From: Thermoplasmata archaeon
GTDB taxonomy: Archaea; Thermoplasmatota; Thermoplasmata; Lutacidiplasmatales; UBA184
Reading direction: 5' to 3'
NCBI GenBank assembly: GCA_022750115.1
Contig: JAKIWI010000004.1
Location: forward strand, 97,939-161,938
Length of the DNA stretch: 64,000 nucleotides
Numbering within the stretch: position 1 is the first letter of the stretch; the number at the start of each line of letters is the position of its first letter. Under the pieces are notes generated by a model that did not search any database, was not told the origin of the DNA, and saw nothing but the letters and a program-made list of their open reading frames with translations. A program made the translations under genes and the position numbers. Shown one piece after another: positions 11,231-52,389 of this stretch.

Positions 11231-12490
11231 TCACGCCGAAGAAACGTGTTTTCCTCGACGATAAACGGCCTTTGGAATCGCACCGATCCGGTACGCGATC
11301 CGGTCGGCCGAAGCGAGGTCGAACAGCGCGAAATCCGCGGCCCGTCCGACGGAGATGACGCCGGCGCCGTCGGCGGCGCCGACGGCATGGGCCGCGTTGA
11401 CCGTCGCCGCCGTCAGCGCTTCTGCCGGCGTGAGGCGCGCGGAGTGGACCGCGTGCGCGATCGCGACCGGCATCGCGTCGACGGGGGAGTTCGGGGAGCT
11501 GTCGGTGCCGATCGCGACGGGGACGCCCGCATCGACCATTTCCCGCCCTGGGCTCCGTAGCGGAGAGAGCGAGGCGAACGGTGTCACGGGAAGAAGCACC
11601 GCCGTCACGCCGGAGCGCGCGAGCGCTTCGCGGTCCTCCGCGGGCACGGTGAGCAGGTGTTCGGCCGACCGCACGCGCAGCGCGGCGGCGAGCGCGGCGC
11701 CGCCGGAGTAGACGAACTCGTCGGCGTGGATCTTTGTCCCGAGCCCCAGGGAGAGCGCCGCGCGGAGGATTCGTTCCGACTGCGGGACGGTGAAGAAGCC
11801 CGGCTCGCAGAACACGTCGGCGAACTTGGCGAGTCGTCGATGGGCGACCTCGGGTAGGGTGCGCCGGACGATCTCGTCGACGTAGACGTCGGGGTCCCGG
11901 GCGCGCTCGGGAGGGACGGCGTGCGCGCCGAGGTACGTCGGGATGAGGTCAAGCCCCGAAATTTTCGCGAGCTTCGGGATGAGTGAGAGGAGTCGCAGCT
12001 CGCCGGAGTGCGTGAGGGCGTAGCCGCTCTTCACCTCGGCCGTCGTCGTGCCGGCGCGCCGCATGCGCGCAAGCCGCGCCGATGTTTCGGCGAGGAGCGT
12101 CGGGGCCGGGGCCCGGCGGGTCAGTCGCACGGTTCGGTACAGTCCGCCTCCGCCAGCCGCGATCTCCCCGTAGGTCATCCCGCCGATCTTCTGGGTGAGC
12201 TCGTCGGCCCGGTCCCCCGCGTACAGGACGTGCGTGTGGGGGTCGACGAAGCCGGGGACAATCGTACCGCCGCCCGCGTCGATCGTGGTCCCTCCGCGCC
12301 GAAGGCGTACCTCGCGCCGTACCTTCCGCTCGGGACCGACCGCGACGAACACTCCGCCGCGGACCGCCAGCGCCGCCCCCGCGACGACCGAAAGTTCGCT
12401 CGCGGCCGCGCCGACGCGCGGGACCGGACCCGTTCGCAGCGTCGCGAGCTCGCCGATCCCGGTGACGAGCAGGTCGACGCCCGCGCTCAT
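11231..12490 (-). CDS. imidazolonepropionase-like metal-dependent amidohydrolase
   Basis: 'GFVDPHTHVLYAG', 'KIHADE' amidohydrolase motifs; 419 aa; ATGA overlap with upstream rnz. The listed 1137-aa ORF is read-through. Confidence 0.7.
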   Translation of the reverse strand: MSAGVDLLVTGIGELATLRTGPVPRVGAAASELSVVAGAALAVRGGVFVAVGPERKVRREVRLRRGGTTIDAGGGTIVPGFVDPHTHVLYAGDRADELTQKIGGMTYGEIAAGGGGLYRTVRLTRRAPAPTLLAETSARLARMRRAGTTTAEVKSGYALTHSGELRLLSLIPKLAKISGLDLIPTYLGAHAVPPERARDPDVYVDEIVRRTLPEVAHRRLAKFADVFCEPGFFTVPQSERILRAALSLGLGTKIHADEFVYSGGAALAAALRVRSAEHLLTVPAEDREALARSGVTAVLLPVTPFASLSPLRSPGREMVDAGVPVAIGTDSSPNSPVDAMPVAIAHAVHSARLTPAEALTAATVNAAHAVGAADGAGVISVGRAADFALFDLASADRIAYRIGAIPKAVYRRGKHVSSA

Positions 12491-13389
12491 GGCTGGCGAA
12501 CGAGATGGTCGAGCAGGTCGCGGGCCGCGTGTGCCTCGACGAAACGGACCTTCGCCTCCGACTCGAGTCCTTCGACCTCCTTGTAGCGGCTCGAAAAGTG
12601 CGTGAGGAACAGTTCCTGGACCTCGGCGGCCTTCGCGAGCTCCGCGGCCTGGCGAGCGGAGGAGTGCCCCCACTGGTTCGCCTCGTCCTCGAGCTCGGCG
12701 CCGACCGTCGCCTCGTGGATCAGCACGGTAGCGCGGCGAGCGAGCTTCTCGATGTCCCCGCACGGCGACGTGTCGCCCGAATAGACGATGGAGCGGCCGA
12801 GGCGCGGCGGCCCCATCACGTCCTCCGGGCGGACCTCGTGGTCGCCCACGCGGACGGTCTCCCCAGCCTCCAACCGGCCGAAGTCCGCGCCCCGGATGCC
12901 GAGGGACCGAGCCAGGGCGCCGTCGAATCGTCCGCGCTTCGGCCCTTCCTCGAGCCGATACGCCAGGCTCGGGACAGGGTGGGTGGCGGCGGCGGTGCGG
13001 ACCGAGTACCCGTCGAGCTCCACCGACGCGCCCGGGGAGAGCGCGTGGAGCGTGATCGGGAACCGGAGCGTGAAGTATCCGAGCTTGAGAACCTGGTCGA
13101 ACACCTCTTTCGCGTCGGGCGGACCGTACAGGTCGAGCGGCTCGGTCCGGTGGTTGAGGCTCATACTCTGGATCAGGCCGGGGAGGCCGAGGAAGTGGTC
13201 GCCGTGGAAGTGGGTGATGAACACCCGCCGGACGCGCATGAACGAGGCACTCGACTGGAAGAATTGCCGCTGCGTGCCTTCCCCGCAGTCGAACAGGACC
13301 ATCTCCCGCTCCGTGTCGAGCGCGATGGCGCTCGCGGAGCGCTCCTTGGTCGGCCAGGAGCCGGCCGTCCCGAGGAAAGTGAGTCGCAT
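12487..13389 (-). CDS. rnz: ribonuclease Z (tRNA 3'-processing endonuclease)
   Basis: 'MRLTFLGTAGSWPT' N-term, 'HFHGDH' metallo-beta-lactamase motif, 300 aa. Confidence 0.8.
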   Translation of the reverse strand: MRLTFLGTAGSWPTKERSASAIALDTEREMVLFDCGEGTQRQFFQSSASFMRVRRVFITHFHGDHFLGLPGLIQSMSLNHRTEPLDLYGPPDAKEVFDQVLKLGYFTLRFPITLHALSPGASVELDGYSVRTAAATHPVPSLAYRLEEGPKRGRFDGALARSLGIRGADFGRLEAGETVRVGDHEVRPEDVMGPPRLGRSIVYSGDTSPCGDIEKLARRATVLIHEATVGAELEDEANQWGHSSARQAAELAKAAEVQELFLTHFSSRYKEVEGLESEAKVRFVEAHAARDLLDHLVRQP

Positions 13390-14600: not shown

Positions 14601-15092
14601 ATGCGAGCGGAATCGGCCCATGCGGCCCTGCTGGTCGTCATCATCGTGGGCCTCGGGCTCGCGGTCTTCTCCGCCGTGGAGTCCCTCGACCCGTGGTTCC
14701 AGGGGGCCTGCTACGTCAACAAGGTCATTTCGTGCGGAGCGGTCGATTCGAGCGGCCACACGACGACTCTCCATGTCCAGGACTACACGATCGGGATCGC
14801 AGGCTTCCTCCTCCTCCTCGTCGTCGACATCCCGCTGTACCGGACGTGGCGCCTGGACCTGCTGAGAGCGCTCGTCGGCCTTTCGGCTCTCGGACTCGCG
14901 GTCAGCGCCTACTTCGCCTACGTCGAGCTAGCGATCATCCACGCGCTCTGTCCCGTGTGCTTCTCCACCTACGTCGCCGACGCCGCGGTCCTGGTCCTCT
15001 CGTTCTACCTGCTCCGCACCAGCCGTTCCGAGGAGCCTGACCCAGATTCCAAGAATCCGTCCAGCGACTCGGAGCCGACGTCGTCATCGTAG
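14601..15092 (+). CDS. vitamin K epoxide reductase (VKOR) homolog / DsbB-like
   Basis: Polytopic membrane protein; loop cysteine pair 'CYVNKVISC' plus 'CPVC' redox motif in a TM helix; starts 8 nt after paralog A. Confidence 0.75.
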   Translation: MRAESAHAALLVVIIVGLGLAVFSAVESLDPWFQGACYVNKVISCGAVDSSGHTTTLHVQDYTIGIAGFLLLLVVDIPLYRTWRLDLLRALVGLSALGLAVSAYFAYVELAIIHALCPVCFSTYVADAAVLVLSFYLLRTSRSEEPDPDSKNPSSDSEPTSSS

Positions 15093-15142
15093 ACGAGCCG
15101 ACCGGGGCGGGGGGACGCCTCGACAGCGCCGACGATCGGTGG

Positions 15143-15157
15143 GCCGTTAAGCCTCCG
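15143..15157 (+). promoter_or_regulatory. TATA-like box for thioredoxin-fold paralog B
   Basis: 'ggccgTTAAGCCtcc' ~30 bp upstream of ATG 15184. Confidence 0.35.
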
Positions 15158-15183
15158 CCGCCCTAGGGGCCTCGTTCATCCGC

Positions 15184-16296
15184 ATGGTCGACTGGGACAC
15201 CGTCGAGCGTCGCCGTTCGAGGGGATGGGATTGGGACCGGATCGCGTCGGACCCCCGGGTCGACTTCCACGCCGAAGAGGGGGCCGGCGACCCCGGCCGG
15301 GCGCTTCGTGCCATGTACTACCAGCGTCGGTCGAAATCCCGGCGCGGCCCTTCGGCCTCCGAACGCGGGGCCGGGAGCGACCTCGCGCCGGAGAAACGCT
15401 GGAACCTCGTGCGCGTCGCGGCGCTGCTCGCGCCGATGTTCGCCGCCTGGTTCGTCCTCGCCCTCGTGTTCCCCTCCCCGGTCGGGGCGTTCCTCTCCGC
15501 GATCCCCGTGCTCGTGATCCTGATGCTCCTCTCGATCGCCCTGCTGGGTTTTGCGCTGCTGCGCACCGCCGATCGGTGGACCACGGGAGTCCGGAACAGC
15601 CTGGTCGTCGGGGCGGTCCTCGGGCTCGTGCTGGCGGGAATCTTCGGGCTCGCGGCGGTGGTCAGCGGCTGCCCGACCCTCACGGCCACGACCTCGCCGG
15701 AACCGTCCAACTTCGTCGTCGTGGCGAACCCACTCTGGGCCGACTCTGGCATCCCCGTGTTCTTCTTCTACGGGTCGATCGCGTGCCCGTACTGCGCGGC
15801 ATCGAGTTGGGCGATGGCCGTTGCGCTCGAGCAGTTCGGGACGCTCTCGGGGACCCACTTCGACCGGTCCTCGCCGACCGATGCTGCCGGCCCGAGCACG
15901 CCCGAGGTCGTCCTCGCCGGAGCGACGCTGCAGAGCCGATGGGTCAGCCTCCACGTCGCCGAGTCGACCGATAACCAGACGATCACGGCCGCCCCGACGT
16001 CGGGCTGCGTGGAGTCGGCGTACGTGAGCGCCTACGACCCCGGGGGAAGCATTCCGTTCCTCGTCATCGGCGGGCAGTATCTCCACGTCGGTGCACTCGT
16101 CGCGCCCGCGAAGCTCGCCGGGTTGACGCCGGCCCAGGTGCAGGCGCAGATCGCGAACCAGTCCGGCCCCGCCTGGGACGCCATCAGCCCGATCGCGTTT
16201 CTTCTGGAAGCGTTCTTGGTCAAGGTGAACGGCGGACAGCCCGCCAGCGTTGCGACGAACAGCTCGGTCGCCAATTGGCTGGGTCAGATCCACTGA
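15184..16296 (+). CDS. membrane-anchored thioredoxin-fold protein (CPYC), paralog B
   Basis: About 75 % identical to the 13478-14593 product, same topology, 'FFFYGSIACPYCAASSW'; own TATA-like box ~30 bp upstream. Confidence 0.7.
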   Translation: MVDWDTVERRRSRGWDWDRIASDPRVDFHAEEGAGDPGRALRAMYYQRRSKSRRGPSASERGAGSDLAPEKRWNLVRVAALLAPMFAAWFVLALVFPSPVGAFLSAIPVLVILMLLSIALLGFALLRTADRWTTGVRNSLVVGAVLGLVLAGIFGLAAVVSGCPTLTATTSPEPSNFVVVANPLWADSGIPVFFFYGSIACPYCAASSWAMAVALEQFGTLSGTHFDRSSPTDAAGPSTPEVVLAGATLQSRWVSLHVAESTDNQTITAAPTSGCVESAYVSAYDPGGSIPFLVIGGQYLHVGALVAPAKLAGLTPAQVQAQIANQSGPAWDAISPIAFLLEAFLVKVNGGQPASVATNSSVANWLGQIH

Positions 16297-16353
16297 ACGC
16301 GGACCGCCGTCGCTGGCGCGCGGAGCCGCGGGAAACGGTTCGGCCGAGCGTCG

Positions 16354-17061
16354 CTACGGAACGAACGGGTGCGCCGAGGCGTCCCGGCGGCGCTGGTCTT
16401 CGGCCCCGACCAGACGGTTCGCGTGCGCGATCTTCTGGACCGCCGCGTGGAAGGCGTCGAGGTGGTCGCCGCGGACCCCGACGAGCATCCGGTCGTCGGC
16501 CATCTGGGTGAAGACGCGCGAGCCGATGCAGCCCATCGACACCGCGACGTTCGCCCCCTGATTGAGGGTGGGAACGACCGCGCACATCGGGCGGCCGTTC
16601 ATCGGGACCGGGCCGGCGACCGTCTCCATCGCCAGCATCGCCGAGCGCGGCTTCGCGAAGAACAGCACGTTGGTCGGCGGCATCGGGAGCGACCCGAGCG
16701 GGCCGTAGGCGACGAACTTCGGCGCGGTGGCGTTGCGAGGGATCTTCCCTTCCTCGCCGGGCCTCAGATACCCCTCCTTCTGCATCATCCCGACCGTGGC
16801 CATCAGGCGCTGGCCGAGCTCGCCTTCGGGGGCGGCCCCGAGGACGAACGCGCCGATCTCGCAGGCCTCGTGGGCGGGGAGCGCTGCGTAGAAGGCGTGC
16901 TTTTGTCCCTCGGCGAAGAACGTGCAGACCGAGGGGACCCCGCCCGGGTGCTCGGGGACCCCCTTCGGCGCCGCGTCCAGGTAGGTCACTTGGACGGGCG
17001 CATGGTCGAGCTCGAGGTCCTTCGATAGGTCGCTCGCGATCTGGCGGAGGTGGTCGGTCAT
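16354..17061 (-). CDS. DUF169-family protein
   Basis: 235-aa product; ATG at 17061 preferred over the upstream GTG (17085) because a TATA-like box sits ~30 bp upstream. Confidence 0.55.
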   Translation of the reverse strand: MTDHLRQIASDLSKDLELDHAPVQVTYLDAAPKGVPEHPGGVPSVCTFFAEGQKHAFYAALPAHEACEIGAFVLGAAPEGELGQRLMATVGMMQKEGYLRPGEEGKIPRNATAPKFVAYGPLGSLPMPPTNVLFFAKPRSAMLAMETVAGPVPMNGRPMCAVVPTLNQGANVAVSMGCIGSRVFTQMADDRMLVGVRGDHLDAFHAAVQKIAHANRLVGAEDQRRRDASAHPFVP

Positions 17062-17209
17062 GGACTGCGGGTTCCCCCACTCCACGATGGGTAAATACGG
17101 TTTCCAAATGGAAAGCGTCCGAGTGCGGCCCCCGCGGTCAGGCCGTGGTCTAGGCTCCGCGCCCCGTCGAAGGTGGGGTGCCGCCGTCCATCGTCGGCGT
17201 CGTCGCAGG

Positions 17210-17224
17210 CTTCGTGTTAAATAG
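17210..17224 (+). promoter_or_regulatory. TATA box of the atpK-E-C operon
   Basis: 'gtgTTAAATAGGgg' ~35 bp upstream of the atpK ATG. Confidence 0.45.
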
Positions 17225-17255
17225 GGGTCGTTTTTGCGCGCCCCGGGACATCCAC

Positions 17256-17474
17256 ATGGTAGACCCGTACGCGACCCTCGCGGCTGGAATTGCGATTGCC
17301 GGGGGCCTCATCGGGACGGGAATGGCCCAGTCCGGGATCGGCGCCGCCGGTATGGGCATCATCGCCGAGAAGCCGGAGAAGTTCGGGAACGTGCTGTTCT
17401 TCTTCGTCATTCCTGAGACGCTCTGGATCATCGGGTTCGTGCTGGGCATCGTTCTCCTGCTGGGCGTCATCTAG
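17256..17474 (+). CDS. atpK: A-type ATP synthase subunit K (proteolipid c)
   Basis: 'GAAGMGIIAEKPEKFGNVLFFFVIPETLWIIGFVLGIVLL' two-helix proteolipid; ATG at 17256 with a TATA-like box ~35 bp upstream. Confidence 0.85.
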   Translation: MVDPYATLAAGIAIAGGLIGTGMAQSGIGAAGMGIIAEKPEKFGNVLFFFVIPETLWIIGFVLGIVLLLGVI

Positions 17475-17498
17475 ACCGCTCGGCTCGGCCCCCCTACC

Positions 17499-18053
17499 AT
17501 GACCCTGGACCGCCTCGTCGAGGAAATCCGACTCCGCGCCGAGGAGGAGCTCCGCACCCAGTCGGCCCGGCAGGCGGCCGAGGAGTCCGCGGTGGCGGCC
17601 GACCGCGACGCGCGGGTCGCCGCGGTCCGGGAGCAGACGCAGCGCGACTCCGAGCGGGAGATCGCGCAGGAGCGCGCCCACCGGCTCGCCAGCGCGAAGC
17701 TGCAGGCGCGGAAGCTCGTCTACGAGGCCGACGAAGCCCGCATGTCCGCGGCCCTCGCCGAGACCCGGGAACTTCTCTCCGATTACACGGAGTCGGACGA
17801 GTACCCGAAGGTGCTCAAGCGGATGGTCACCTACGCCACGGGCGTGCTCGGCAAGGCGACCCGCGTGATGGGCCGCACCGAAGACGCCGCCGCCCTGAAG
17901 AAGCTCGCCGGCGCCGCCTTCGACCCGACTCCGCAGGCGATCCTCGGGGGCGTCGTGGCGGAGAGCGCGGACGGGGCGCGTCGGCTGAACCTCTCCTTCG
18001 ACGAGCTGCTCCGGTTGCGCGAGGACCGGGTCCGCCAGCTGCTCAGCTCGTAG
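17499..18053 (+). CDS. atpE: A-type ATP synthase subunit E
   Basis: 184-aa coiled-coil N-term plus globular C-term; position between K and C. Confidence 0.8.
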   Translation: MTLDRLVEEIRLRAEEELRTQSARQAAEESAVAADRDARVAAVREQTQRDSEREIAQERAHRLASAKLQARKLVYEADEARMSAALAETRELLSDYTESDEYPKVLKRMVTYATGVLGKATRVMGRTEDAAALKKLAGAAFDPTPQAILGGVVAESADGARRLNLSFDELLRLREDRVRQLLSS

Positions 18054-18065
18054 GCGCGTGCGGTC

Positions 18066-19142
18066 GTGGCCGGTTCCCCCTACGCGAGCGCCCTCGGCCG
18101 GCTGAAGTCGCACCTGCCGTCGATCCTCCCGAAGGAGTCGTACGGGCCGCTCGTCGCGGCGAAGGACCTCGTCGAGGTCACGAAGCTACTCGAGACGACC
18201 CCGTACGGCCCCGAGATCGCCCAGTCGGCCGCGAGCTACCACGGGGCCCCGCTGCTCGAGCTGGCCGTCAACCGCGTGCTGGTCCTACGGAACCGGCTCG
18301 CCTACGAGTCGACCCCGTTCGCCGGACGCGCGCTGGTCGGCGCGTACCTGCGGCGGTGGGATCTCCAGAACATCGGCATCATCCTCGCGGCGAAGGCGCA
18401 GGGCCGCCCGATCGGGGAGACCGAGACGGCGCTCGTGTCGGCCCGGGACATCCCGGCCGGCCTCGTCGCCGGGACGATGACGCTCGACGACCTGCGGCTC
18501 CTCCTCCAGCAGCCGACGCTCGATGCGGTCGCACAGGGGCTCGTGAAGTTCGGCTACGGCGGGGCGCTCCTGCCGAGGATGGAGGCGTACAACCGGACGC
18601 ACGACATCTTCCCGCTCCTCGCGGCGCTCGACCGGTTCTACTACGAGGACCTGCTGAGTTCGGCCCGGTTCTACCAGGGCGACGAGTGGGTCGTCCGGCT
18701 GCTCATCCAGAGCGAGATCGACGTGCGGAACGCGCTCCTCCTGCTGAAGGGGAAGGACGCGGGCCTCGCGGTCGAGACCGTCCTCGAGCGGTTCATCGAC
18801 GGGGGGACGTTCCTTCGCGCGAGCGTTGCCGAGGCCTACGGCGGGCGCACCGTGGGCGAAGTTGTCGCGGCGCTCGAGCCGAGGTTCCCGGCGCTTCCAG
18901 AGGGCGACGAACTGTACAAAACCGGCCGCAGCCTCGCGGGCTACGAGGCGGCGCTCGTCCGCGAGCGCGCGGTTCGCGAGCTGAAGCGGCTCCGCGCTTA
19001 CCCGCTCAGCGTCGGCGTCGTGTTCGCGTTCCTGCTCCTCGCCGAGTTCGAGCGGGGCGACCTGCGGCGCCTCGTCTACGGGAAACTGTACCTCGTGGCG
19101 CCCGCGGATATCCAGCGCGAACTCGTCGTCCCGAGGCTCTGA
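18066..19142 (+). CDS. atpC: A-type ATP synthase subunit C
   Basis: 358 aa, alpha-helical; follows atpE. Confidence 0.8.
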   Translation: MAGSPYASALGRLKSHLPSILPKESYGPLVAAKDLVEVTKLLETTPYGPEIAQSAASYHGAPLLELAVNRVLVLRNRLAYESTPFAGRALVGAYLRRWDLQNIGIILAAKAQGRPIGETETALVSARDIPAGLVAGTMTLDDLRLLLQQPTLDAVAQGLVKFGYGGALLPRMEAYNRTHDIFPLLAALDRFYYEDLLSSARFYQGDEWVVRLLIQSEIDVRNALLLLKGKDAGLAVETVLERFIDGGTFLRASVAEAYGGRTVGEVVAALEPRFPALPEGDELYKTGRSLAGYEAALVRERAVRELKRLRAYPLSVGVVFAFLLLAEFERGDLRRLVYGKLYLVAPADIQRELVVPRL

Positions 19143-19154
19143 ACCGGTCTCGGA

Positions 19155-19185
19155 CCCGCCCGTCCTACGGGGACGGAGGGGCGGG
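19155..19185. terminator. GC-rich imperfect hairpin between the convergent atpC and atpI 3' ends
   Basis: 'cccgcccgtcc tacgg ggacggaggggcggg' inverted repeat; no oligo-T tract, so function is uncertain. Confidence 0.2.
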
Positions 19186-21198
19186 CCGGTAGAGCGGCGC
19201 GGTGTAGACCCGTCGGGTCTTGAGCGGGTGGAACTCCTTGCCGTTCCCCTCGTAGAACTTCGAGAAGTACTCCACGAAGATCAGCCGCGCCCCTTGGATC
19301 CCGGGCTCGAAGACGCCGAGCACGAGGTTGAACACCTGGCCGACGACGAGAATGACCAGGCCGAGGACGATGAACAGGACCGCCTTCAGGGCGACCTCCG
19401 CCGAGCCGCCCGCGATCATCCCGGCGCTTCCCCCGATGAGCCCGGAGTGGCCGTCCGGGCCGATCGTGACCGTGTTGATCACGGTCGCGAGGATGATCGA
19501 GGCGAGCAGGATGCCGATGAGCCGCGTGTAGGACAGCACGTGGCTCAGCATCTCCATCACGCCCATCAGCCCGTTCTGGGCGCCCTCGCCGAAGGCGACG
19601 AGGAGCGCCCCGACGACGATGAGCGCCACCGGCCCGAGGAACGAGATCGACGTCGGCCCGCCCTGGGTGTGGGCGAGGAGGCCGAGGCCGAAGGCGGCGA
19701 GCCCAATGGTCGCGACGATGCCCCCGACCTTGGCGAGCGCGTGGCGGATCCGGTGGTGGAAGTACTCCTTCAGCGCGCCGAGTGCGAAGCCGAAGACGAC
19801 CATCCCGATGCCGATGAAGCCGGCGACCTTCAGGTAGGGCCCGACGTGGTGGAGCGGGTCGATCGGGGAGTTGTACCCGGGGATCACTTGCGCGCCGAAG
19901 AACGAGTTGAAGGTGAGCCCGAGGCCGATGGCGATGATGCAGCCGGGGACGAGCGCGTAGGCGAGTGAGCGCATCCCGGCGGGGCTCACGATGCTTGTGA
20001 GGAACTTTTTCAGCCCTTTCGGGAGGTGCGTGCGGCCCGGGAATCCCTGGATCATCCACAGGCAGATCCCGAGGATGACGAGCCCGTAGCCCCAGTCGGC
20101 GAGCATGAGGCCGTAGAAGATCGGGAAGACGAACGCGAACACCCACGTCGGGTCGAACTCGCTGGCTTGGGGCAGCGAGTAGAACCGGACGAGGAACTCG
20201 AAGCGCCGCACCCCGTGCGGGTTCTCGATGAACGTCGGTGGCTCCTCGGTCGTCGTGACGGGATAGAGCTCGGCGCGGTGCTGCACCGAGGTCTCGAGCG
20301 CGGAGCGGAGGGCGGGGAGCTCGCGCTTCGGGACCCAACCCTGGAGGACGAAGCCCCGGTCGCTCGAGCCGAGCCGGGTGTAGACGTCGAACTTCCGATT
20401 CTCGATCTCGAGCGCCTCGGTGAGCGCGGCCACGCGGGAGTACCATTCGGCCGAGATCGCGCTGAGGCGCGTGGCGATCTCGGACTTCCGGCGGTCGATC
20501 TCGGTCTGCCGGGCCACGAGTCGGGGGAGCTCCTCGGCGGAGGTCCCGGCGACACCCGAGGGTACGCCGAACAGTTGGATGCGGTGGACGGCGGCGGTCC
20601 GGGTGACCGCCTCGGCGTCGGCCGCGGGGATCGCGAACAGGAACCGGACCCGGTCGTCCTCGATCGGCCGCATCTCGACCTGGATCGTTCGGGTCGCGGG
20701 GAGCTGCTCCTTCCACTTTGCGACGTCCTCCGAGTCGCCCTCGCCGAACAGCGCGATGCCGTTGCGGGCACGCAGTTCGTCGTAACGCCCGGTGTACTGG
20801 GAGAACTGCTGCAGGAGCATGACGGTCTGCTCGAGCCCCCGGCGCTCGGTCGTGAGCTGGTCGTCTTCCCGCTTGAGCTGCCCGACCTCCTCGTCGATGG
20901 GGATCGTTTCGGTCGCGCGGAGGATCTGGTCGAGTCCCTCGAACCGGACCGGGGCCGGCGGCGCCCCGCCGGGCTTCGGCAGAGCGGCGAGCAGGCCGCG
21001 GAAGCGGACGAGCCGGTCGGCGACCTCGCGCTGGCGCTCGTTCATTTTGCCCGGTCCAATCTGGGCCAGCGACTCCTTGTCGACGGGCTCGACTTGGAGC
21101 GTGCCGAGGTCGTGGAGGACGGAGAGGATCGTGTCCTTGTCGTCGTTCAGCCCGACGATCGCGATCTTCGAGAACGGAATGGGGCGCAGGAACGGCAC
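19165..21198 (-). CDS. atpI: A-type ATP synthase subunit I (membrane a-subunit)
   Basis: 677 aa; soluble N-terminal coiled coil plus C-terminal polytopic membrane domain. Confidence 0.85.
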   Translation of the reverse strand: MPFLRPIPFSKIAIVGLNDDKDTILSVLHDLGTLQVEPVDKESLAQIGPGKMNERQREVADRLVRFRGLLAALPKPGGAPPAPVRFEGLDQILRATETIPIDEEVGQLKREDDQLTTERRGLEQTVMLLQQFSQYTGRYDELRARNGIALFGEGDSEDVAKWKEQLPATRTIQVEMRPIEDDRVRFLFAIPAADAEAVTRTAAVHRIQLFGVPSGVAGTSAEELPRLVARQTEIDRRKSEIATRLSAISAEWYSRVAALTEALEIENRKFDVYTRLGSSDRGFVLQGWVPKRELPALRSALETSVQHRAELYPVTTTEEPPTFIENPHGVRRFEFLVRFYSLPQASEFDPTWVFAFVFPIFYGLMLADWGYGLVILGICLWMIQGFPGRTHLPKGLKKFLTSIVSPAGMRSLAYALVPGCIIAIGLGLTFNSFFGAQVIPGYNSPIDPLHHVGPYLKVAGFIGIGMVVFGFALGALKEYFHHRIRHALAKVGGIVATIGLAAFGLGLLAHTQGGPTSISFLGPVALIVVGALLVAFGEGAQNGLMGVMEMLSHVLSYTRLIGILLASIILATVINTVTIGPDGHSGLIGGSAGMIAGGSAEVALKAVLFIVLGLVILVVGQVFNLVLGVFEPGIQGARLIFVEYFSKFYEGNGKEFHPLKTRRVYTAPLYRPAPPSP

Positions 21199-21212
21199 GC
21201 GAACGCCCCCGG

Positions 21213-21575
21213 TCAGTCCGAGCGGAACTCGCCCACGACGGCGTCGACCAGCTTCGACTTGAGCGCCCCGACTGCCACCTTGGAGCCGCCGGCGACCTTC
21301 TTGGCCTCGGTCTCGCCGGCCTTGACCAGCGAGGCGACCTCGGTGTCGAGCCCGATGCGCGCGGCCTCGACGGCCATGGCCGCCGTTCGCTCCGCCTCGG
21401 CCCTCGCCTGACGGACCGTCTCCTCGGCCTCGGCGCGCGCCGCCTTCAGTCGCTCGCTTCCGGCGGTGGTCGCGACCCTCAGCTTCTCTTCGACCTCGAC
21501 CTCGGTCGCCTTCAGGCGCCGCAGGGCCTCGATCGATTCTCCACTGATGGGACCTGGGTTCGGTGCGTCGGACAT
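21213..21575 (-). CDS. atpH: A-type ATP synthase subunit H (peripheral stalk)
   Basis: 120 aa, Ala/Glu-rich coiled coil; sits between atpD and atpI. Confidence 0.65.
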   Translation of the reverse strand: MSDAPNPGPISGESIEALRRLKATEVEVEEKLRVATTAGSERLKAARAEAEETVRQARAEAERTAAMAVEAARIGLDTEVASLVKAGETEAKKVAGGSKVAVGALKSKLVDAVVGEFRSD

Positions 21576-21693
21576 CGGTTACGCTCCCTTCACGAAGTGC
21601 AGGACCAGGTAGCCGGCGAGCAGGAGGACCGCGAGCCGCAGGACGAGGGAAAGCATCTGGACGCGGCGGAACTTGACGACCGCCGGGTTCGCA

Positions 21694-22344
21694 CTACGCC
21701 AGGGCAGCATTGCCGGCCGCCTCCTCGGCTTCCATCTTCCGCTTGACCGACTTCAGCATGCTGAAGGCGTCGCGCTCGAGTTCGTCGAATCGGAACTTGA
21801 TGTAGCGCACTGTCCCCTGGAGGCGCGGGATCAGCACGTTCTCGATCGCGCTCGCGCGCCGCTTGGTCTTCTCGATCTCCCGGAGGAGGCGTCGCAGCGC
21901 GTTCTCCTTCTCGGCGATGTCGAGGACGACCTGGTAGATCCCCTGGAACTGCCCGATCGACTCCATGATCGAGGTGGGGAGGTCGAGGAGGGAGGCGGCG
22001 CCCACGACGCCGTACCCACCGGCGTCGACGCGCGGGGTCTTGACCCCCATGACGTTCTTCGTCGAGACCGTCACGGGCAGCACGTCGGGCAGGAGGACCG
22101 AGATCGACTCGAGGCGCGTCGGACCCTCCATCATGTCGGCCTGGCGGATCGAGGCGTAGCCGCGCGCGATCTTCGTCTGCAGGTCGCCCCGCAGCGCGAG
22201 CGCCTGTTTCGAGAGATTGAAGAACTCGGCGATCAGCGCCGAGCGCTTCAGCTTCAGCAGGTTGAGCCCCTTCTTCGCGAGAACGATCCGCCGCCGCGTG
22301 CGCAGCAGCTCGAGGCGGGTCGGGCGGATGTTCTCCTGAGCCAT
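21694..22344 (-). CDS. atpD: A-type ATP synthase subunit D (central stalk)
   Basis: 'MAQENIRPTRLELLRTRRRIVLAKKGLNLLKLKR' subunit D N-term. Confidence 0.85.
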   Translation of the reverse strand: MAQENIRPTRLELLRTRRRIVLAKKGLNLLKLKRSALIAEFFNLSKQALALRGDLQTKIARGYASIRQADMMEGPTRLESISVLLPDVLPVTVSTKNVMGVKTPRVDAGGYGVVGAASLLDLPTSIMESIGQFQGIYQVVLDIAEKENALRRLLREIEKTKRRASAIENVLIPRLQGTVRYIKFRFDELERDAFSMLKSVKRKMEAEEAAGNAALA

Positions 22345-22370
22345 CGCTCCGTCCTCCGCCGTCGGGTCGC

Positions 22371-23792
22371 CTAGGCCGCCGACTTGACGCGGTACTTCGC
22401 GATGAATTCGGGCTTGAGGCGCTTCAGTTCCGCGTCGGGGAGCTCGGAGAGGATGTCCCAGGCGATCGCGAGGCTCTCGTCGATCGAGCGGTCCTCGTCG
22501 GGGCGCTGGTTGACGAATTCGTTCTCGAATCGCTCGGCGATCTTCAGGTAGATCCGGTCGACGGCGCTCAGGGAGTCCTCGCCGACGATCGCCGAGAGCG
22601 CGCGCTGGTCCTTCCCGGTCGCGTAGCTCGCGTACAGCTGGTCCGCGACGCCACGGTGGTCCTCGCGCGTCCGGCCCTTGCCGATCCCCTGGTTCATCAG
22701 GCGCGAGAGTGAGGTGAGCACGTCGATGGGCGGGTAGACGCCGCGCCGCTGGAGGTCGCGGCTGGCCACGATCTGTCCCTCGGTGATGTAGCCCGTCAGG
22801 TCGGGGATCGGGTGGGTGATGTCGTCGGCCGGCATCGTCAGGATCGGAAGTTGCGTGATCGACCCCTTACGCCCGTGGATCTTCCCGGCGCGCTCGTAGA
22901 GAGTCGCGAGGTCGGTGTAGAGGTAGCCTGGATATCCGCGGCGGCCGGGCACCTCTTCCCGCGCGCTCGCGATCTCCCGGAGCGCCTCGCAGTAGTTCGT
23001 CATGTCCGTCAGCACCACGAGGATGTGCATGTCGCGCTCGTAGGCGAGGAACTCGGCGGTCGTGAGCGCCATGCGCGGCGTGATGACGCGCTCCATCGAA
23101 GGGTCGCTGGAGAGGTTCAGGAAGACGACGGTGCGCTCGAGCGCCCCCGTGGACTCGAACTCCTTGAGGAAGAAGTTCGCCTCCTCGCTCGTGATCCCCA
23201 TCGCGGCGAACACGACGGCGAAGTTTTCGGAGGAGTTGCGGAGTTTCGCCTGGCGGACGATCTGGGCCGCGATCTGATTGTGGGGAAGGCCCGCGCCGGA
23301 GAAGATCGGGAGCTTCTGTCCGCGCACGAGGGTGTTCATCACGTCGATGTTCGAGAGACCGGTCTGAATGAACTCGCTCGGCTCTTCGCGACTGTACGGG
23401 TTCATCGCGTTCCCGACGATCTCGAGCCGCTGGTCGGAGACGATCTTCGGTCCGCCGTCGCGCGGCTCGCCAAGTCCGTTGAAGACCCGACCGAGCATCG
23501 CATCCGAGACCGGGAGTCGCGCGACCTCGCCCAGGAACTTCACGCTCGTCTGGTTGACGTTCATGCCCATCGTCGGGCCGAACACCTGGACGATGGCGAG
23601 CCCCTTTCGGGAGTCGAGGACCTGCCCTTGCCGGCGCGTCCCGTCGGGGAGAGCGATCTCGACGATCTCGCCGTACGCCGCGTTCGCGACGCCCTGGACG
23701 AACAGGAGCGGCCCCGAGATCCGGTCGATCGTTCGGTAGTCGACGGGGATGTCGACGGTCGGCGCCTTGGGGGCCTGCTTCGTGCTCGCCAT
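22371..23792 (-). CDS. atpB: A-type ATP synthase subunit B
   Basis: 473 aa; non-catalytic B subunit. Confidence 0.9.
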
Positions 23793-23796
23793 TGGC

Positions 23797-25551
23797 CTAT
23801 CCTCCCGCCGCGGTGGCGGCGACCGACGTCGTCATCTCGGTGTCCATCGCATCGAACTGCGCCTTTAGCTCGGCCTCGGGGATCCACTTCATCCGGCTGA
23901 GCTTCTGTCGGACGGGGAGCTTCTGGATGTCGCCGACCAGGGCGCCCTTCGCGATCGCTTCCTGCTCGCGGTCCCCGAAGGTGAGGATCGCCCGCAGCAT
24001 CCGGTACTGCTTGCCGATCGACGTGTAGGTGTCGACGTCGTCGTACGCCGACTGTTGTAGGTAGTCCTCGCGGATCATCCGCGAGACGTCGAGGATTCCC
24101 TTTTCGCGTTCCGGCAGCGCATCGACGCCGACGAGCTGCACGATCTCCTGGAGCTCGGACTCCTTCTGGAGCGTCTCGAGCGCTTTCTGGCGGAGCTGCA
24201 CGAAGTCGCCGGCGAGCGAATCCTTGTACCACGGGGCGAGGTCGCCGACATAGAGCGAGTAGCTTTGCAGCCAGTTGATCGCCGGGAAATGTCGGCGCGA
24301 CGCGAGGCTCGCGTCGAGCGCCCAGAAAACGCGCGTGACCCGAAGGGTGTTCTGACTGACCGGTTCGGAGAAGTCGCCACCGGGCGGGCTCACGGCTCCG
24401 ACGACGGTGACGGACCCTGGGCGCGCCTCCGGCGAGACCGTGACGACCCGACCCGCGCGCTCGTAGAACTCGGCGACCCGGCGTCCGAGGTAGGCGGGGT
24501 ACCCTTCCTCCCCCGGCATCTCCTCCAGTCGGCCGGAGATCTCCCGCATCGCCTCGGCCCATCGGCTGGTCGAGTCGGCCATCAGGGCGACGTCGTAGCC
24601 CATGTCCCGATAGTACTCCGCGAGCGTGATGCCCGTGTAGACGCTCGCCTCGCGGGCGGCGACGGGCATGTTCGAGGTGTTGGCGATGAGGATCGTCCGC
24701 TCCATGAGCGGCCGCCCCGACTTCGGGTCTTGGAGGTTCGGGAACGTCGCGAGCACCTCGGTCATCTCGTTCCCGCGCTCCCCACAGCCGACGTACACGA
24801 CCACGTCCGCATCGGACCATTTCGCGAGCTGCTGCTGACAGACCGTTTTCCCGGATCCGAAGGGTCCGGGGATGCACGCGGTGCCGCCCTTGGCGATCGG
24901 GAAAAACGTATCGATGACGCGCTGGCCGGTGACCAGGGGAATGCCCGGCGCGAGCTTCTGCTGAACCGGGCGCGGAATCCGGACGACCCACTTTTGGGAG
25001 AGTCCGAGGGGCTGCCGGCCCGAGGGCGTTCGGACAGTTCCAATCGTCTCGCGGATCGTGAAGCTGCCGGCCTTCAGGTCTTCGAGGGTGCCCGAGATCC
25101 CGTGCGGGACCATGATCTTGTGAAGGATGAGCGGCGTCTCCTGGACCGTCCCGAGGATGGCTCCCGGCGTGACCTCGCTCCCGACCTTCGCGGTCGGGGT
25201 GAACTCCCATTTCTTCGTCTCGTCGAGGGGCGCGGCGACGAAGCCACGCGTGATAAAGTCGCCGAGATTCTTCTGCAGGACGTCGAGCGGGCGCTGGACC
25301 CCGTCGTAGATCGACTTGAGCAGGCCGGGGCCGAGCTCGACCGACAGTGCCTGGCCGGTGCTCTCGACCTTATCGCCGGGCCGGACGCCGGTGGTGTCCT
25401 CGTAGACCTGGACCGTCGCGGTCTCGCCGACGAGCCGGATGATCTCGCCGACCAGCCCGAGTTCGCCAACGCGGACGACGTCGAACATCTTGGCGCCGGT
25501 GAGGCCTTCGGCGACGACGACCGGACCGGAGACTCGTGCGACTGTTCCCAT
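23797..25551 (-). CDS. atpA: A-type ATP synthase catalytic subunit A
   Basis: 584 aa; 'GPFGSGKT' Walker A; A-subunit non-homologous insert. Confidence 0.9.
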
Positions 25552-25558
25552 GGATTCC

Positions 25559-25897
25559 TCACTTCGGCATCGCGAGCGTCACACCGAGGACGCGCTTCGC
25601 GAGGGCTTCGACGCTCTCGACCTCGTACTCCCCGCTCGGCCCGGGGACGAAGACCACGAGCGGCGTCAGCGACGCCTCCGCCGCGGAGCGCTGCGCGTCG
25701 GTCAGCGACTTGCGGACCGACTGGCTCGCGACCACGAGGCTGAACCGACCGGACGTCATCGCCTTCTGGAATTCGTGACCGGCAGTCTCGGGCGTGACTT
25801 CCACGACGTCTTTCATGCCGATCAGTCGGAAGCCGATCGCAAGCTCCCGCTCGCCCAGGACCACGGTTCCACCGTCGTCCGGCGACCCTCCCGGCAT
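25559..25897 (-). CDS. atpF: A-type ATP synthase subunit F
   Basis: 112 aa; first gene of the F-A-B-D-H-I operon; TATA ~28 bp upstream. Confidence 0.8.
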
Positions 25898-25918
25898 GGC
25901 GGCCCGGGCGGGGTCTCG

Positions 25919-25933
25919 GCCTATTTAACGGCT
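25919..25933 (-). promoter_or_regulatory. TATA box/BRE of the atpF-A-B-D-H-I operon
   Basis: Minus strand reads 'gccgTTAAATAGgcc' ~28 bp upstream of the atpF ATG (25897), consistent with a leaderless transcript. Confidence 0.5.
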
Positions 25934-26000
25934 CCCCCGGCGACAGCGCGCGAACGCGATTCTCCGTCGGCCGGGCGGCCGATTTGGCGCTTCGTCCGCG

Positions 26001-26279
26001 CTACTTGTACGTCGAAGTGTGGACGTGGCCCTCGTCGTCCGTGATCGTGATGCACTCGCCTTCGCACTCGAACAGGCAGGCCTCGCACACGATGCACTCG
26101 GGACCGTTCACGGCGATCGACTTCTCGCCGCGGAACTGGAACTTCGCTCCGATCGCCGCGTCGTCCACGACCTCGGGAAACTGGTCGCGGGGCTTCAGCT
26201 CAAACACGTTCACTGGGCAGACGTCACGGCAGTGCGCGCAGCCCGTACACTTCCCGAGATCGATGTCTACCTGGACCAT
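26001..26279 (-). CDS. 2x[4Fe-4S] ferredoxin
   Basis: 'CTGCAHCRDVCP' and 'CIVCEACLFEC' clusters; 92 aa. Confidence 0.8.
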   Translation of the reverse strand: MVQVDIDLGKCTGCAHCRDVCPVNVFELKPRDQFPEVVDDAAIGAKFQFRGEKSIAVNGPECIVCEACLFECEGECITITDDEGHVHTSTYK

Positions 26280-26377
26280 GCCCGATTCCGCCGGGCGGTT
26301 TCACGCGGTCCATCGTATTTGACCTTTCGGTCGGAAATTACGGGCGCGTCGGAATTGCGCCGCTCGGGGCATCCCCG

Positions 26378-26393
26378 CTCCGTGCGCACGGAG
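26378..26393. promoter_or_regulatory. 16-bp perfect palindrome CTCCGTGCGCACGGAG in the ferredoxin/DUF72 divergent intergenic region
   Basis: Self-complementary by inspection; lies ~35 bp upstream of the DUF72 TATA-like 'cctatttca' and ~100 bp upstream of the ferredoxin start. Confidence 0.35.
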
Positions 26394-26458
26394 GAGGCGG
26401 AACGCCCACGATTCACCGGGCACGTGCCTATTTCATCCCCGCTCGGCGTCGCCCGATC

Positions 26459-27223
26459 GTGGGACGGATTCTCCTCGGCACGAGCGGCTGGGATTACCCG
26501 GAGTGGACCGGTCGGTTCTACCCCCGCCACACCGTGCGCGACCGACTGCGGTACTACGCATCCCGGTTTGCGTCTGTCGAGGTCAACTCGACGTTCTACC
26601 GGCTCCCTCCGGTGTCGGTCGCCGAGTCGTGGGCGCGCCGGACCCCAAGCGAGTTTCGGTTCGCGGCGAAGTTCCCACAGTCGATCACCCACGACCGGCG
26701 ATTGGTCGGAACGGCCGAGGAGCTGCGTCGGTTCCTCACTGTCCTGCAACCATTGCGCGCTGCTGGGAAGCTCGCCGCGGCCCTCCTCCAACTCCCCCCG
26801 TCGCTGAAATTCGAGCCGGCGACCGTCCGAGCGTTCTACGAGAGCCTACCGGCGGACCTTCCGGTGGCGGTCGAGTTCCGCGAGCCGTCGTGGCTCGAGC
26901 CTGCCTCGTTCGACCTCCTGCGCGAGTTCCATCTCGCCTACACCGTGGTCGACGAGCCGATGCTCCCGATCCGGCTCGAGATCACAGCGCCGTTCGCCTA
27001 CGTCCGATGGCACGGCCACGGCCGGGAGATCTGGTACGATTACACGTACCGCGCGGACGAGATTGCGGCCTGGGTCCCGCGCGTGCGAGCCCTGGCCGAG
27101 AACGCCCGGGACGTCTACGGATTCTTCAACAACCATTTCCGCGGGGACGCCGCGACGAACGCCGAGCAGCTCCGCGACGGACTGGGCCTCGAACCACCCC
27201 CGTGGGCCCCGCGCCTCGGCTAG
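26459..27223 (+). CDS. DUF72 (YecE-like) family protein
   Basis: 'GTSGWDYPEW', 'FNNHFRGDA' signatures. Confidence 0.75.
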   Translation: MGRILLGTSGWDYPEWTGRFYPRHTVRDRLRYYASRFASVEVNSTFYRLPPVSVAESWARRTPSEFRFAAKFPQSITHDRRLVGTAEELRRFLTVLQPLRAAGKLAAALLQLPPSLKFEPATVRAFYESLPADLPVAVEFREPSWLEPASFDLLREFHLAYTVVDEPMLPIRLEITAPFAYVRWHGHGREIWYDYTYRADEIAAWVPRVRALAENARDVYGFFNNHFRGDAATNAEQLRDGLGLEPPPWAPRLG

Positions 27224-50875: not shown

Positions 50876-51027
50876 TTAAATAGGGGGCCCGAATCGAGAA
50901 CCTTCGTAGGAACCCGTAGCCCCGACTCCGTTGAGCTCGCCCGTCTGATTCTTCTGACGCGTGTGGACTTGATTGGGCCGACGGCTCTGGATTCCCACAA
51001 ACGCAGAACGCGAAAGAGAGGAACGCC

Positions 51028-51661: not shown

Positions 51662-51676
51662 TCCGTTAAATAGAGA
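51662..51676 (+). promoter_or_regulatory. TATA box for the 51700 gene
   Basis: 'tccgTTAAATAGag' ~28 bp upstream of the ATG, leaderless. Confidence 0.5.
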
Positions 51677-51699: not shown

Positions 51700-52389
51700 A
51701 TGGCCGACGAGAAGTCCCGCGAGCTCAGCCTCTACGTCCAGAGCAAGAAGGTCGTCACGAGCTTCTACCGCCCCCCGTCGCACTCCGGCGATGTCCGCTA
51801 CGGCCCGGAGAGCGGGATCACGGTCACGATGGGCCGGCCCCCCCACCTCGAATCCGACGCGTCGCCCGCGGCGGACGAGGCGTTCTTCCTCTCCGATGAC
51901 CAGGCGCGGTGCGTCGCGATGGTCGAGGAGGTCGCGACGAAGCGCGGCTACGCGGTCAAGGTCACGGACGTCGCGAAGGTCGGTCGCCTCGAGCGGCTCG
52001 TCACCGAGCGACTGCGCGGGGTCCAGAACTTCCCGGTCCTGATCGGTCCGGGCGACCAGCGGCTCGAGGGGTGCGAGGCGTTCACCGACGAGCGGATCGC
52101 CGAGATGATGCCCGCCGAGATGACGAGCCTGCGCGCGTTCACCTACCTGAAGGTCCGCGGCGGCGACCTCGTCCGGATCCGCGAGATCCTGCTCGCCTTC
52201 CGGGAGGTCCGCGAGCTCCACCTGCTCACGGGGGACTGGGATGTGTTCGTCGTCCTCGAGTTCGACGGGGCGCGGAACAAGAAGCGCCAGGTCCTCGACT
52301 TCGTCACCGAGCGGATCCGCGGGATCCCCGAGGTGCTCGACACGAGCACGCTCGTTCCCGAGTACTCGGTCTCGAAGTTCCCGTTCTAG
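51700..52389 (+). CDS. hypothetical protein with C-terminal Lrp/AsnC-type ligand-binding (RAM) domain
   Basis: C-terminal 'FTYLKVRGGDLVRIREILLAFREVRELHLLTGDWDVFVVLEFDG' RAM-domain pattern; N-terminal ~140 aa unassigned, no HTH apparent. Confidence 0.55.
   Translation: MADEKSRELSLYVQSKKVVTSFYRPPSHSGDVRYGPESGITVTMGRPPHLESDASPAADEAFFLSDDQARCVAMVEEVATKRGYAVKVTDVAKVGRLERLVTERLRGVQNFPVLIGPGDQRLEGCEAFTDERIAEMMPAEMTSLRAFTYLKVRGGDLVRIREILLAFREVRELHLLTGDWDVFVVLEFDGARNKKRQVLDFVTERIRGIPEVLDTSTLVPEYSVSKFPF

Follow-up and report, generated by a model that had tools for sequence, protein, structure and literature searches.

Gene Order of the A/V-Type ATP Synthase in Described Archaea

The genes for the subunits of the archaeal A/V-type rotary ATP synthase have been described in several arrangements. 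In most orders of the Thermoplasmatota, as in Methanosarcina mazei (ahaHIKECFABDG), they follow the canonical A1AO order H-I-K-E-C-F-A-B-D(-G), with H and I at the head of the operon. A different order, KECFABDH/GI, is that of the V-type-like operon of acidophiles, which was counted as nine subunits by Wang et al. (2019, ISME J 13:3067, PMC6863869) and is found in the Thermoplasmatales, Marsarchaeota, Nitrosotalea and other acid-tolerant Nitrososphaerota; it is likewise given as the order in Thermoplasmatales and acidophilic V-type ATPases in PMC9287336. For the Lutacidiplasmatales, Sheridan et al. (2022, Nat Commun 13:4110, PMC9287336) reported the arrangement FABDH/GICEK, and their A+B+I tree places this order in the acidophile clade. 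The ATP synthase locus considered here lies in a stretch of 64 kb (the window, with a G+C content of about 69%) from a Thermoplasmata archaeon. In gene order and in lineage it is identical to the FABDH/GICEK locus of the Lutacidiplasmatales, and there is no difference in layout between them. The text of PMC9287336 does not give the strand and promoter anatomy of this locus, its tiny terminator-less junction or the micro-ORF (a very small open reading frame, ORF) between D and H, and these are added here from the window.

With a probability of about 0.9, we regard the locus as encoding one complete ATP synthase of the acidophile V-type-like kind, which is divided between two convergent operons, has a layout that is fixed within the order, and would have originated by a single inversion of a co-linear operon. 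The split layout itself is already known, being fixed, order-wide and published. It is ordinary as a finding, and an earlier sequence-only reading of this DNA, in which it was first remarked upon, was partly correct in its interpretation.

Subunit Genes of the Locus

The nine subunit genes were located by means of ORF listing together with Pfam and NCBIfam scans, and each of the subunits is present once. Their positions in the window, with lengths in nucleotides (nt) or amino acids (aa), are as follows.

17256-17474, plus strand: atpK, 72-aa single-hairpin proteolipid (c-ring subunit); PF00137 ATP-synt_C, E=4e-13
17499-18053, plus strand: atpE, peripheral-stalk subunit E, 24 nt past K; PF01991, E=3.9e-8, and NF002629, E=3.8e-19
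18066-19142, plus strand: atpC, subunit C (d / AC39), which couples rotor to stalk, 12 nt past E; PF01992, E=2e-45, and TIGR02923 AhaC
19165-21198, minus strand: atpI, 677-aa membrane stator subunit I (a); PF01496, and NF004432, E=2e-148
21213-21575, minus strand: atpH (H/G), 120-aa peripheral-stalk coiled-coil subunit, assigned from its position and a weak similarity
21694-22344, minus strand: atpD, central-stalk subunit D; PF01813, E=1.5e-47
22371-23792, minus strand: atpB, non-catalytic subunit B; TIGR01041, E=1.1e-234
23797-25551, minus strand: atpA, catalytic subunit A, 584 aa, without an intein; TIGR01043, E=1.6e-284, and PF16886
25559-25897, minus strand: atpF, central-stalk subunit F; PF01990, E=6.7e-12; first gene of a six-gene operon (seven with the micro-ORF, which we call x)

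This set contains the parts of an A/V-type rotary ATP synthase, viz. the catalytic-head subunits A and B, which have a P-loop nucleotide-binding domain and the bulge (Xtn) domain specific to A, a central stalk of D, F, and C, and a membrane sector of I and K. The Pfam gathering score was exceeded by D (PF01813), F (PF01990), and C (PF01992), subunit I matched the V/A-ATPase subunit I in the PDB with an E value of 7.6e-21, and the carboxylate of K is the Glu within VIPETLW. For the peripheral stalk, E is clear from its PF01991 match; the matches of H are weak (TIGR02926 AhaH, E=0.0017; V-ATPase subunit G1 in the PDB, E=0.12), and to these are added its conserved position and size, as a gene of 106-122 aa occupies the atpH position ahead of I in all related operons. 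The spacers within both units range from -17 to 26 nt. The placement of K-E-C on the plus strand and of F-A-B-D-H-I on the minus strand, which the sequence-only reading had proposed, is confirmed by this gene map. The K gene starts at the ATG at 17256 and not at the GTG at 17178, where the range given for the whole locus in that reading opens; a TATA box lies inside the longer ORF, and the homologs of K are of 72-77 aa.

Conservation of the Layout within the Lutacidiplasmatales

To relate the locus to those of other genomes, one genome per species was scanned, which yielded 80 related loci with subunit I identities of 47-85%, and the layout of each was read by tblastn with the nine subunits from the window, as far as the contigs extend. 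The order F>A>B>D>(H>)I> followed by <C<E<K was observed in 80 of the 80 loci, down to the subunit I identity of 47%. These loci include that of Candidatus Lutacidiplasma silvani (83% identity in subunit I and 94% in B), which is the named relative closest to the window, and at the far end of the set that of a metagenome-assembled genome (MAG) labelled Candidatus Lutacidiplasmatales. The same convergent layout was also observed in L087 and in the high-G+C metagenome contigs L108, L114, L135, and L160. Subunit K is 75-100% identical among the relatives, and subunit I of the window is 100% identical to MCI4321706.1, a protein from a MAG named "Thermoplasmata archaeon", which, judging from the MAG names and accession series, probably stems from the study of Sheridan et al. 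The window has F-A-B-D-H-I on one strand and C-E-K on the other, as is characteristic of a Lutacidiplasmatales-type locus, and on its best genome matches, which include Candidatus Lutacidiplasma silvani, its genome is that of a soil archaeon of the order Lutacidiplasmatales.

These results bear upon two other explanations for the split. According to the first of these, an H-I-K-E-C-F-A-B-D operon was broken up recently and in this genome specifically, with H and I moved behind D and the expression of the rotor ring uncoupled from that of the rest. The order in the window does differ from H-I-K-E-C-F-A-B-D, the order typical of most archaea, and on this point the sequence-only reading is borne out by the gene map. 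However, a rearrangement specific to this genome, as that reading had it, is contradicted by the identical layout in all 80 relatives over the whole range of subunit I identities and by its publication as typical of the order, and the position of H and I after D is common to co-linear operons in three phyla; hence this explanation is very improbable. A lineage-typical order in close relatives, which the same reading had itself named as evidence against a genome-specific change, is what the synteny comparison revealed. The second explanation, that an assembly or binning artefact has joined two partial ATPase loci tail to tail, is more improbable still. Although the source is a MAG, and convergent junctions with tiny spacers can result from chimeric joins, the same junction (spacer of -4 to about 60 nt) is present in independent assemblies from many studies, some of them contigs of long-read size (0.3-2.3 Mb), and every subunit is present exactly once.

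Some variation among the related loci was noted in other respects. The atpA gene lacks an intein in the window, and an insertion of about 1.2-1.3 kb is found at one and the same site in its closest relatives, with 83-85% subunit I identity (L001-L003). About one in three of the 80 related genomes have this insertion (about 25 loci beyond L001). In the atpA of L001 (4267-7380) the inserted sequence is an intein, which contains a homing endonuclease of the LAGLIDADG type, and a Nitrososphaerota operon (L083) has an intein too. Within the order the atpA intein is a presence/absence polymorphism. One MAG, SMAG_U9053, contains two complete and divergent loci of the convergent type on separate contigs (L009, L024); either the bin is mixed or the locus has truly been duplicated.

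Origin of the Convergent Layout

For comparison with other lineages, outgroup contigs were traced via the list of K homologs, which extends to other phyla, and a metagenome scan with an alignment of subunit D provided 80 further loci. The nearest homologs of K outside the Thermoplasmata are from the Marsarchaeota and Nitrososphaerota (79-80% identity). A co-linear operon K-E-C-F-A-B-D-(small ORF)-H-I was found in the Marsarchaeota (L081, L082), the Nitrososphaerota (L083, L084) and a 394-kb hot-spring contig (L088). In the metagenome scan, all sufficiently long contigs with a G+C content of 31-54% (dozens of them, including acid-mine drainage contigs ACXJ and many soil contigs) were co-linear, and the convergent layout was limited to the four contigs listed above, which have 67-72% G+C. 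The state in the Thermoplasmatales was taken from PMC9287336, the ACXJ contigs and the other co-linear operons. Between the window and the co-linear operons, sequence identity is 78-83% for K, 66-73% for A, 74% for B, 46-55% for D, and 35-37% for I. The C-F junction in the co-linear operons measures 0-7 nt.

With the V-type-like operon the window shares the nine subunits, H and I after D, K in first position after a TATA box, and micro-ORF x. The two differ in that the V-type-like operon is co-linear and has one promoter, whereas in the window a block is inverted at the junction of C and F, and F has a promoter of its own. The single co-linear order K-E-C-F-A-B-D-H/G-I by which this operon was characterised (Wang et al., 2019) is not present in the window, where K-E-C runs toward I from the other strand, but undoing one inversion restores it. 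The canonical A1AO operon has homologous subunits and the blocks K-E-C and F-A-B-D are intact in both; H and I head the canonical operon, whereas in the window their place is after D, and K-E-C has the opposite orientation. The layout of the window follows from KECFABDHI by one inversion, of either block, at the C-F junction; the canonical order would require at least two steps. The relocation of H and I, which the sequence-only reading regarded as part of the split, is not part of it, as H and I already follow D in the co-linear operons of three phyla. This position is an older trait, ancestral to the whole clade of acidophile V-type-like ATPases.

Based upon these comparisons, the ancestor of the locus would have been the K-E-C-F-A-B-D-x-H-I operon that is co-linear in other acidophilic archaea. 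The effect of the split on subunit stoichiometry that the sequence-only reading proposed is conjectural, and K is already the first gene behind the promoter in this co-linear ancestor. One inversion, having a breakpoint in the short C-F junction (0-7 nt), would have placed K-E-C and F-A-B-D-x-H-I in convergent orientation. Following this event, which we infer from the gene orders, the ancestral promoter would have stayed with K-E-C, and F would have gained a new one.

A further explanation, by which K-E-C and F-A-B-D-H-I were acquired separately or the layout was reached from H-I-K-E-C-F-A-B-D in two or more steps, is also improbable, if less so than a genome-specific break-up. ATPase operons are known to move horizontally between archaeal phyla (PMC6863869), and separate acquisitions would be in keeping with this. 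Both halves of the locus, however, resemble the same co-linear operons, with identities typical for each subunit; the D-x-H-I block, micro-ORF included, is common to the co-linear operons; and the A, B, and I trees of PMC9287336 put the order in the acidophile clade. As to several steps, one inversion is enough when starting from KECFABDHI, and two or more events would be necessary if the canonical order were the starting point.

Certain points nevertheless weigh against an origin of two convergent operons from one acidophile-type operon by a single inversion. Both the direction and the number of the rearrangements are drawn from parsimony. The placement in the acidophile clade is taken from PMC9287336 together with the K identities of 78-83%, which are suggestive of it. 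The identity of H is weak in terms of its sequence, the model of two transcripts is built from promoter footprints and gene spacing, and no terminator is visible at the junction where the two transcripts would converge.

The split is a derived character that marks the Lutacidiplasmatales and can be used as a synteny marker; it does not indicate anything unusual about the genome of the window. What the present work adds is modest, viz. what would be a clean natural case in which an essential nine-gene operon was cut by one inversion, a new promoter appeared before the orphaned half, and this promoter was then conserved throughout an order, together with a convergent junction without a visible terminator and a candidate tenth gene of an acid-adapted ATPase.

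A 7-kb metagenome contig (L109, 44% G+C) showed an unusual pattern, consisting of B>D>I> followed by a C-like match on the same strand and an I-like match on the opposite strand; a second ATPase locus may adjoin the first in this case.

Promoters and Transcription Units

The two units are each preceded by a TATA box, and the same sequence is present at both of them.

17217-17225, plus strand: TATA box of atpK-E-C, TTAAATAGG, box start 39 nt ahead of the atpK ATG
25928-25920, minus strand: TATA box of atpF-A-B-D-x-H-I, TTAAATAGG, box start 31 nt ahead of the atpF ATG

The TATA boxes of the window are far beyond what chance would produce, since TTAAATA occurs 4 times in the 64 kb when 0.02 occurrences are expected. 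Among the related loci, TTWWATA is present ahead of K in 49 of 51, most commonly at position -40, and ahead of F in 59 of 61, with 41 of those having it at -31. In none of the related loci was it found in the 100 nt preceding E, C, A, B, D, H, or I, and its background frequency is 0.043 per kb per strand. The assertion of the sequence-only reading that each unit has a TATA-like box of its own is thus upheld, with the boxes conserved upstream of K and F only, and this conservation footprint likewise supports its view of the gene set as two convergent transcription units with separate promoters. A predicted organization with exactly two promoters and two compact operons is well supported by these results, and from them we infer two discrete transcripts and their ends.

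Archaeal TATA boxes are centred about 26-27 nt ahead of the start site of transcription. From this distance and the positions of the boxes, the F mRNA is predicted to be leaderless, starting at about 25897 on the minus strand, and for the K mRNA a leader of about 9 nt is predicted, with a start at about 17247 on the plus strand. Hence, the "leaderless distance" that had been ascribed to both boxes is appropriate for F, where the box is 31 nt from the ATG, but not for K, where it is 39 nt away.

The consensus for the K promoter, based upon 47 loci, is GTTATATAccCgACCtt.cTCGG and that for the F promoter, based upon 58 loci, is GGGGcAG.cgTTAAATAg......aCCCCGCCG. Downstream of the K box the element ACCtt.cTCGG is conserved (window 17226-17250, plus strand), and the F box (window 25900-25945, minus strand) is flanked by GGGGcAG just upstream and by CCCCGCCG 15 nt downstream. 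These conserved elements flanking the two TATA boxes could be sites for regulators. An operator common to both promoters was considered and is not supported, as the conserved elements of K and F differ. A third promoter in the apparent 118-nt gap between D and H was likewise rejected, because the gap consists of a coding micro-ORF and TTWWATA precedes H or I in no locus. A scan for bacterial sigma-70 promoters gave 0 sites, this consensus being irrelevant to an archaeon. The only other TTAAATA boxes in the window are at 51665-51672 and 50876-50882, both on the plus strand, the former of which lies 34 nt ahead of the ATG of a gene (51700-52389) whose 229-aa product has an Lrp/AsnC ligand-binding domain.

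The Convergent Junction

The two units meet at a very short spacer.

19143-19164: atpC/atpI spacer, 22 nt separating the convergent stop codons

The length of 22 nt agrees with that given in the sequence-only reading, and in the junctions of 78 relatives the median spacer is 20.5 nt, with a 4-nt overlap of the genes in 4 of them. The GC-rich hairpin which that reading placed in the gap has a stem at about 19160-19176 (-18 kcal/mol) that spans the atpI stop codon and is mostly inside atpI; it is no better than chance and is not conserved. When the region 19125-19195 was folded on both strands, z-scores of -0.9 to -1.5 relative to shuffled sequences were obtained (-1.3 to -1.5 for the hairpin), and the 22-nt gap by itself folded worse than its shuffles (z +0.9). 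No conserved hairpin, structure or T-run was present in the 78 junctions of the relatives, there is no T-run inside the 22-nt spacer of the window, and a consensus terminator scan gave 3 sites against 3.6 expected. A role of the hairpin as a terminator was rejected because its z-scores are near those of the shuffles, no hairpin or T-run is conserved, and the terminator scan is at the level of chance. The first run of four or more T residues occurs about 245 nt past the atpI stop on the minus strand and about 860 nt past the atpC stop on the plus strand. An overlap of the 3′ ends of the two transcripts is plausible on these sequence features, but no more than that.

It could be that the convergence is itself regulatory, in that each transcript would run on into the last gene of the opposite operon and the two units would affect one another through collision of RNA polymerases or 3′ antisense overlap, and that it could help in balancing the membrane and head subunits. 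This proposal is compatible with an origin of the locus by a single inversion. The short spacers with overlapping genes in four loci, the lack of T-runs, the distance to the first runs of four or more T residues, and the retention of a tight junction throughout the order are in its favour. Tight junctions are, however, to be expected in compact archaeal genomes, and junction insertions of 545-955 nt are tolerated in three relatives, which argues against any strict requirement. We consider a regulatory function of the convergence unlikely, though clearly less so than the other explanations discussed above.

The insertions in question are located precisely at the point where atpI and atpC converge, in L051 and L053 (about 11950-12955) and in L064 (about 11560-12165). 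Within the L053 insertion there is an ORF of 162 aa, on the same strand as atpC, that has a thioredoxin-like CPHC motif.

A Small ORF between atpD and atpH

The 118-nt interval between D and H, which appears to be a gap when only the nine subunit genes are considered, is coding.

21579-21710, minus strand: micro-ORF x, 43 aa, MLPWRSANPAVVKFRRVQMLSLVLRLAVLLLAGYLVLHFVKGA, with one transmembrane helix after a basic N-terminus

The ATG of this ORF, which is absent from the sequence-only reading, overlaps the 3′ end of atpD by 17 nt, and its stop codon is 3 nt ahead of the atpH ATG. Its G+C content by codon position (0.715/0.433/0.91) is of the coding type, with the same signature as the neighboring genes. 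It was found in 73 of 81 sequences (the 80 fetched loci and the window). An ORF of the same kind, in which a single hydrophobic helix comes after the motif N-x-x-[QV]-[RK]-[RK]-F, also occupies the D-H interval of co-linear operons from the Marsarchaeota, Nitrososphaerota, and acid-mine and low-G+C soil contigs (31-72% G+C; e.g. L083 17347-17451, L081 16004-16243, and L088 15973-16146). Across the V-type-like operons examined, its size ranges from 34 to 79 aa. When a profile made from the Lutacidiplasmatales copies only was compared with 23,268 six-frame ORF segments from L081-L168, 16 matches with E<1e-3 were obtained, and all 16 of these fall in the interval from D to I. In hhalign comparisons, x matched the two outgroup copies tested with probabilities of 91% and 77%. 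No Pfam family was found for x, and where it has been called at all it is labelled as a hypothetical protein; the nine subunits counted in the papers that define this operon do not include it. A search of publications for NtpH and for any small additional subunit of A1AO enzymes produced nothing usable for it.

The closest parallel in position and size, which are the only features compared, is AhaG of M. mazei, a protein of 6.3 kDa encoded by the gene that follows ahaD, from which protein one very hydrophobic tryptic peptide is known (PMC4350412). Both AhaG and x are very small, partly hydrophobic and encoded directly after D. Thermoplasma and the "plasmas" of acid mines are reported to lack orthologs of AhaG (PMC3750248); unlike this reported distribution, x occurs in acid-mine contigs.

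Judging from its sequence conservation, x appears to be a real gene that has kept its place between D and H across three phyla. We further suggest, tentatively and at somewhat less than even odds, that it is an overlooked tenth gene of the operon, translationally coupled to atpD and atpH, and that its product could be a membrane subunit or an assembly factor. One possibility, by analogy with the F-type b subunit and its membrane helix, is that x would tether or position the H/E peripheral stalk at subunit I. If this suggestion is correct, x would be specific to an enzyme type that is linked to life at low pH, and as a real subunit it would bear upon how this enzyme type is constructed and why it travels with acid tolerance. 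It is the only element of the locus that may be new.

Flanking Genes

Scans of the 64-kb window for tRNA genes and for Rfam families detected no tRNA gene and no match at the Rfam gathering threshold. The flanks of the locus are syntenic in relatives (L085, L087). On the K side, the genes in these relatives are those for VKOR and DUF929 beside K, and on the F side they are a 92-aa 2x[4Fe-4S] ferredoxin gene and a DUF72 gene (26001-27223 in the window). The K-side flank of the window (14601-17085) has the order of the VKOR and DUF929 genes reversed, and a DUF169 gene (16354-17085, minus strand) is inserted ahead of atpK.

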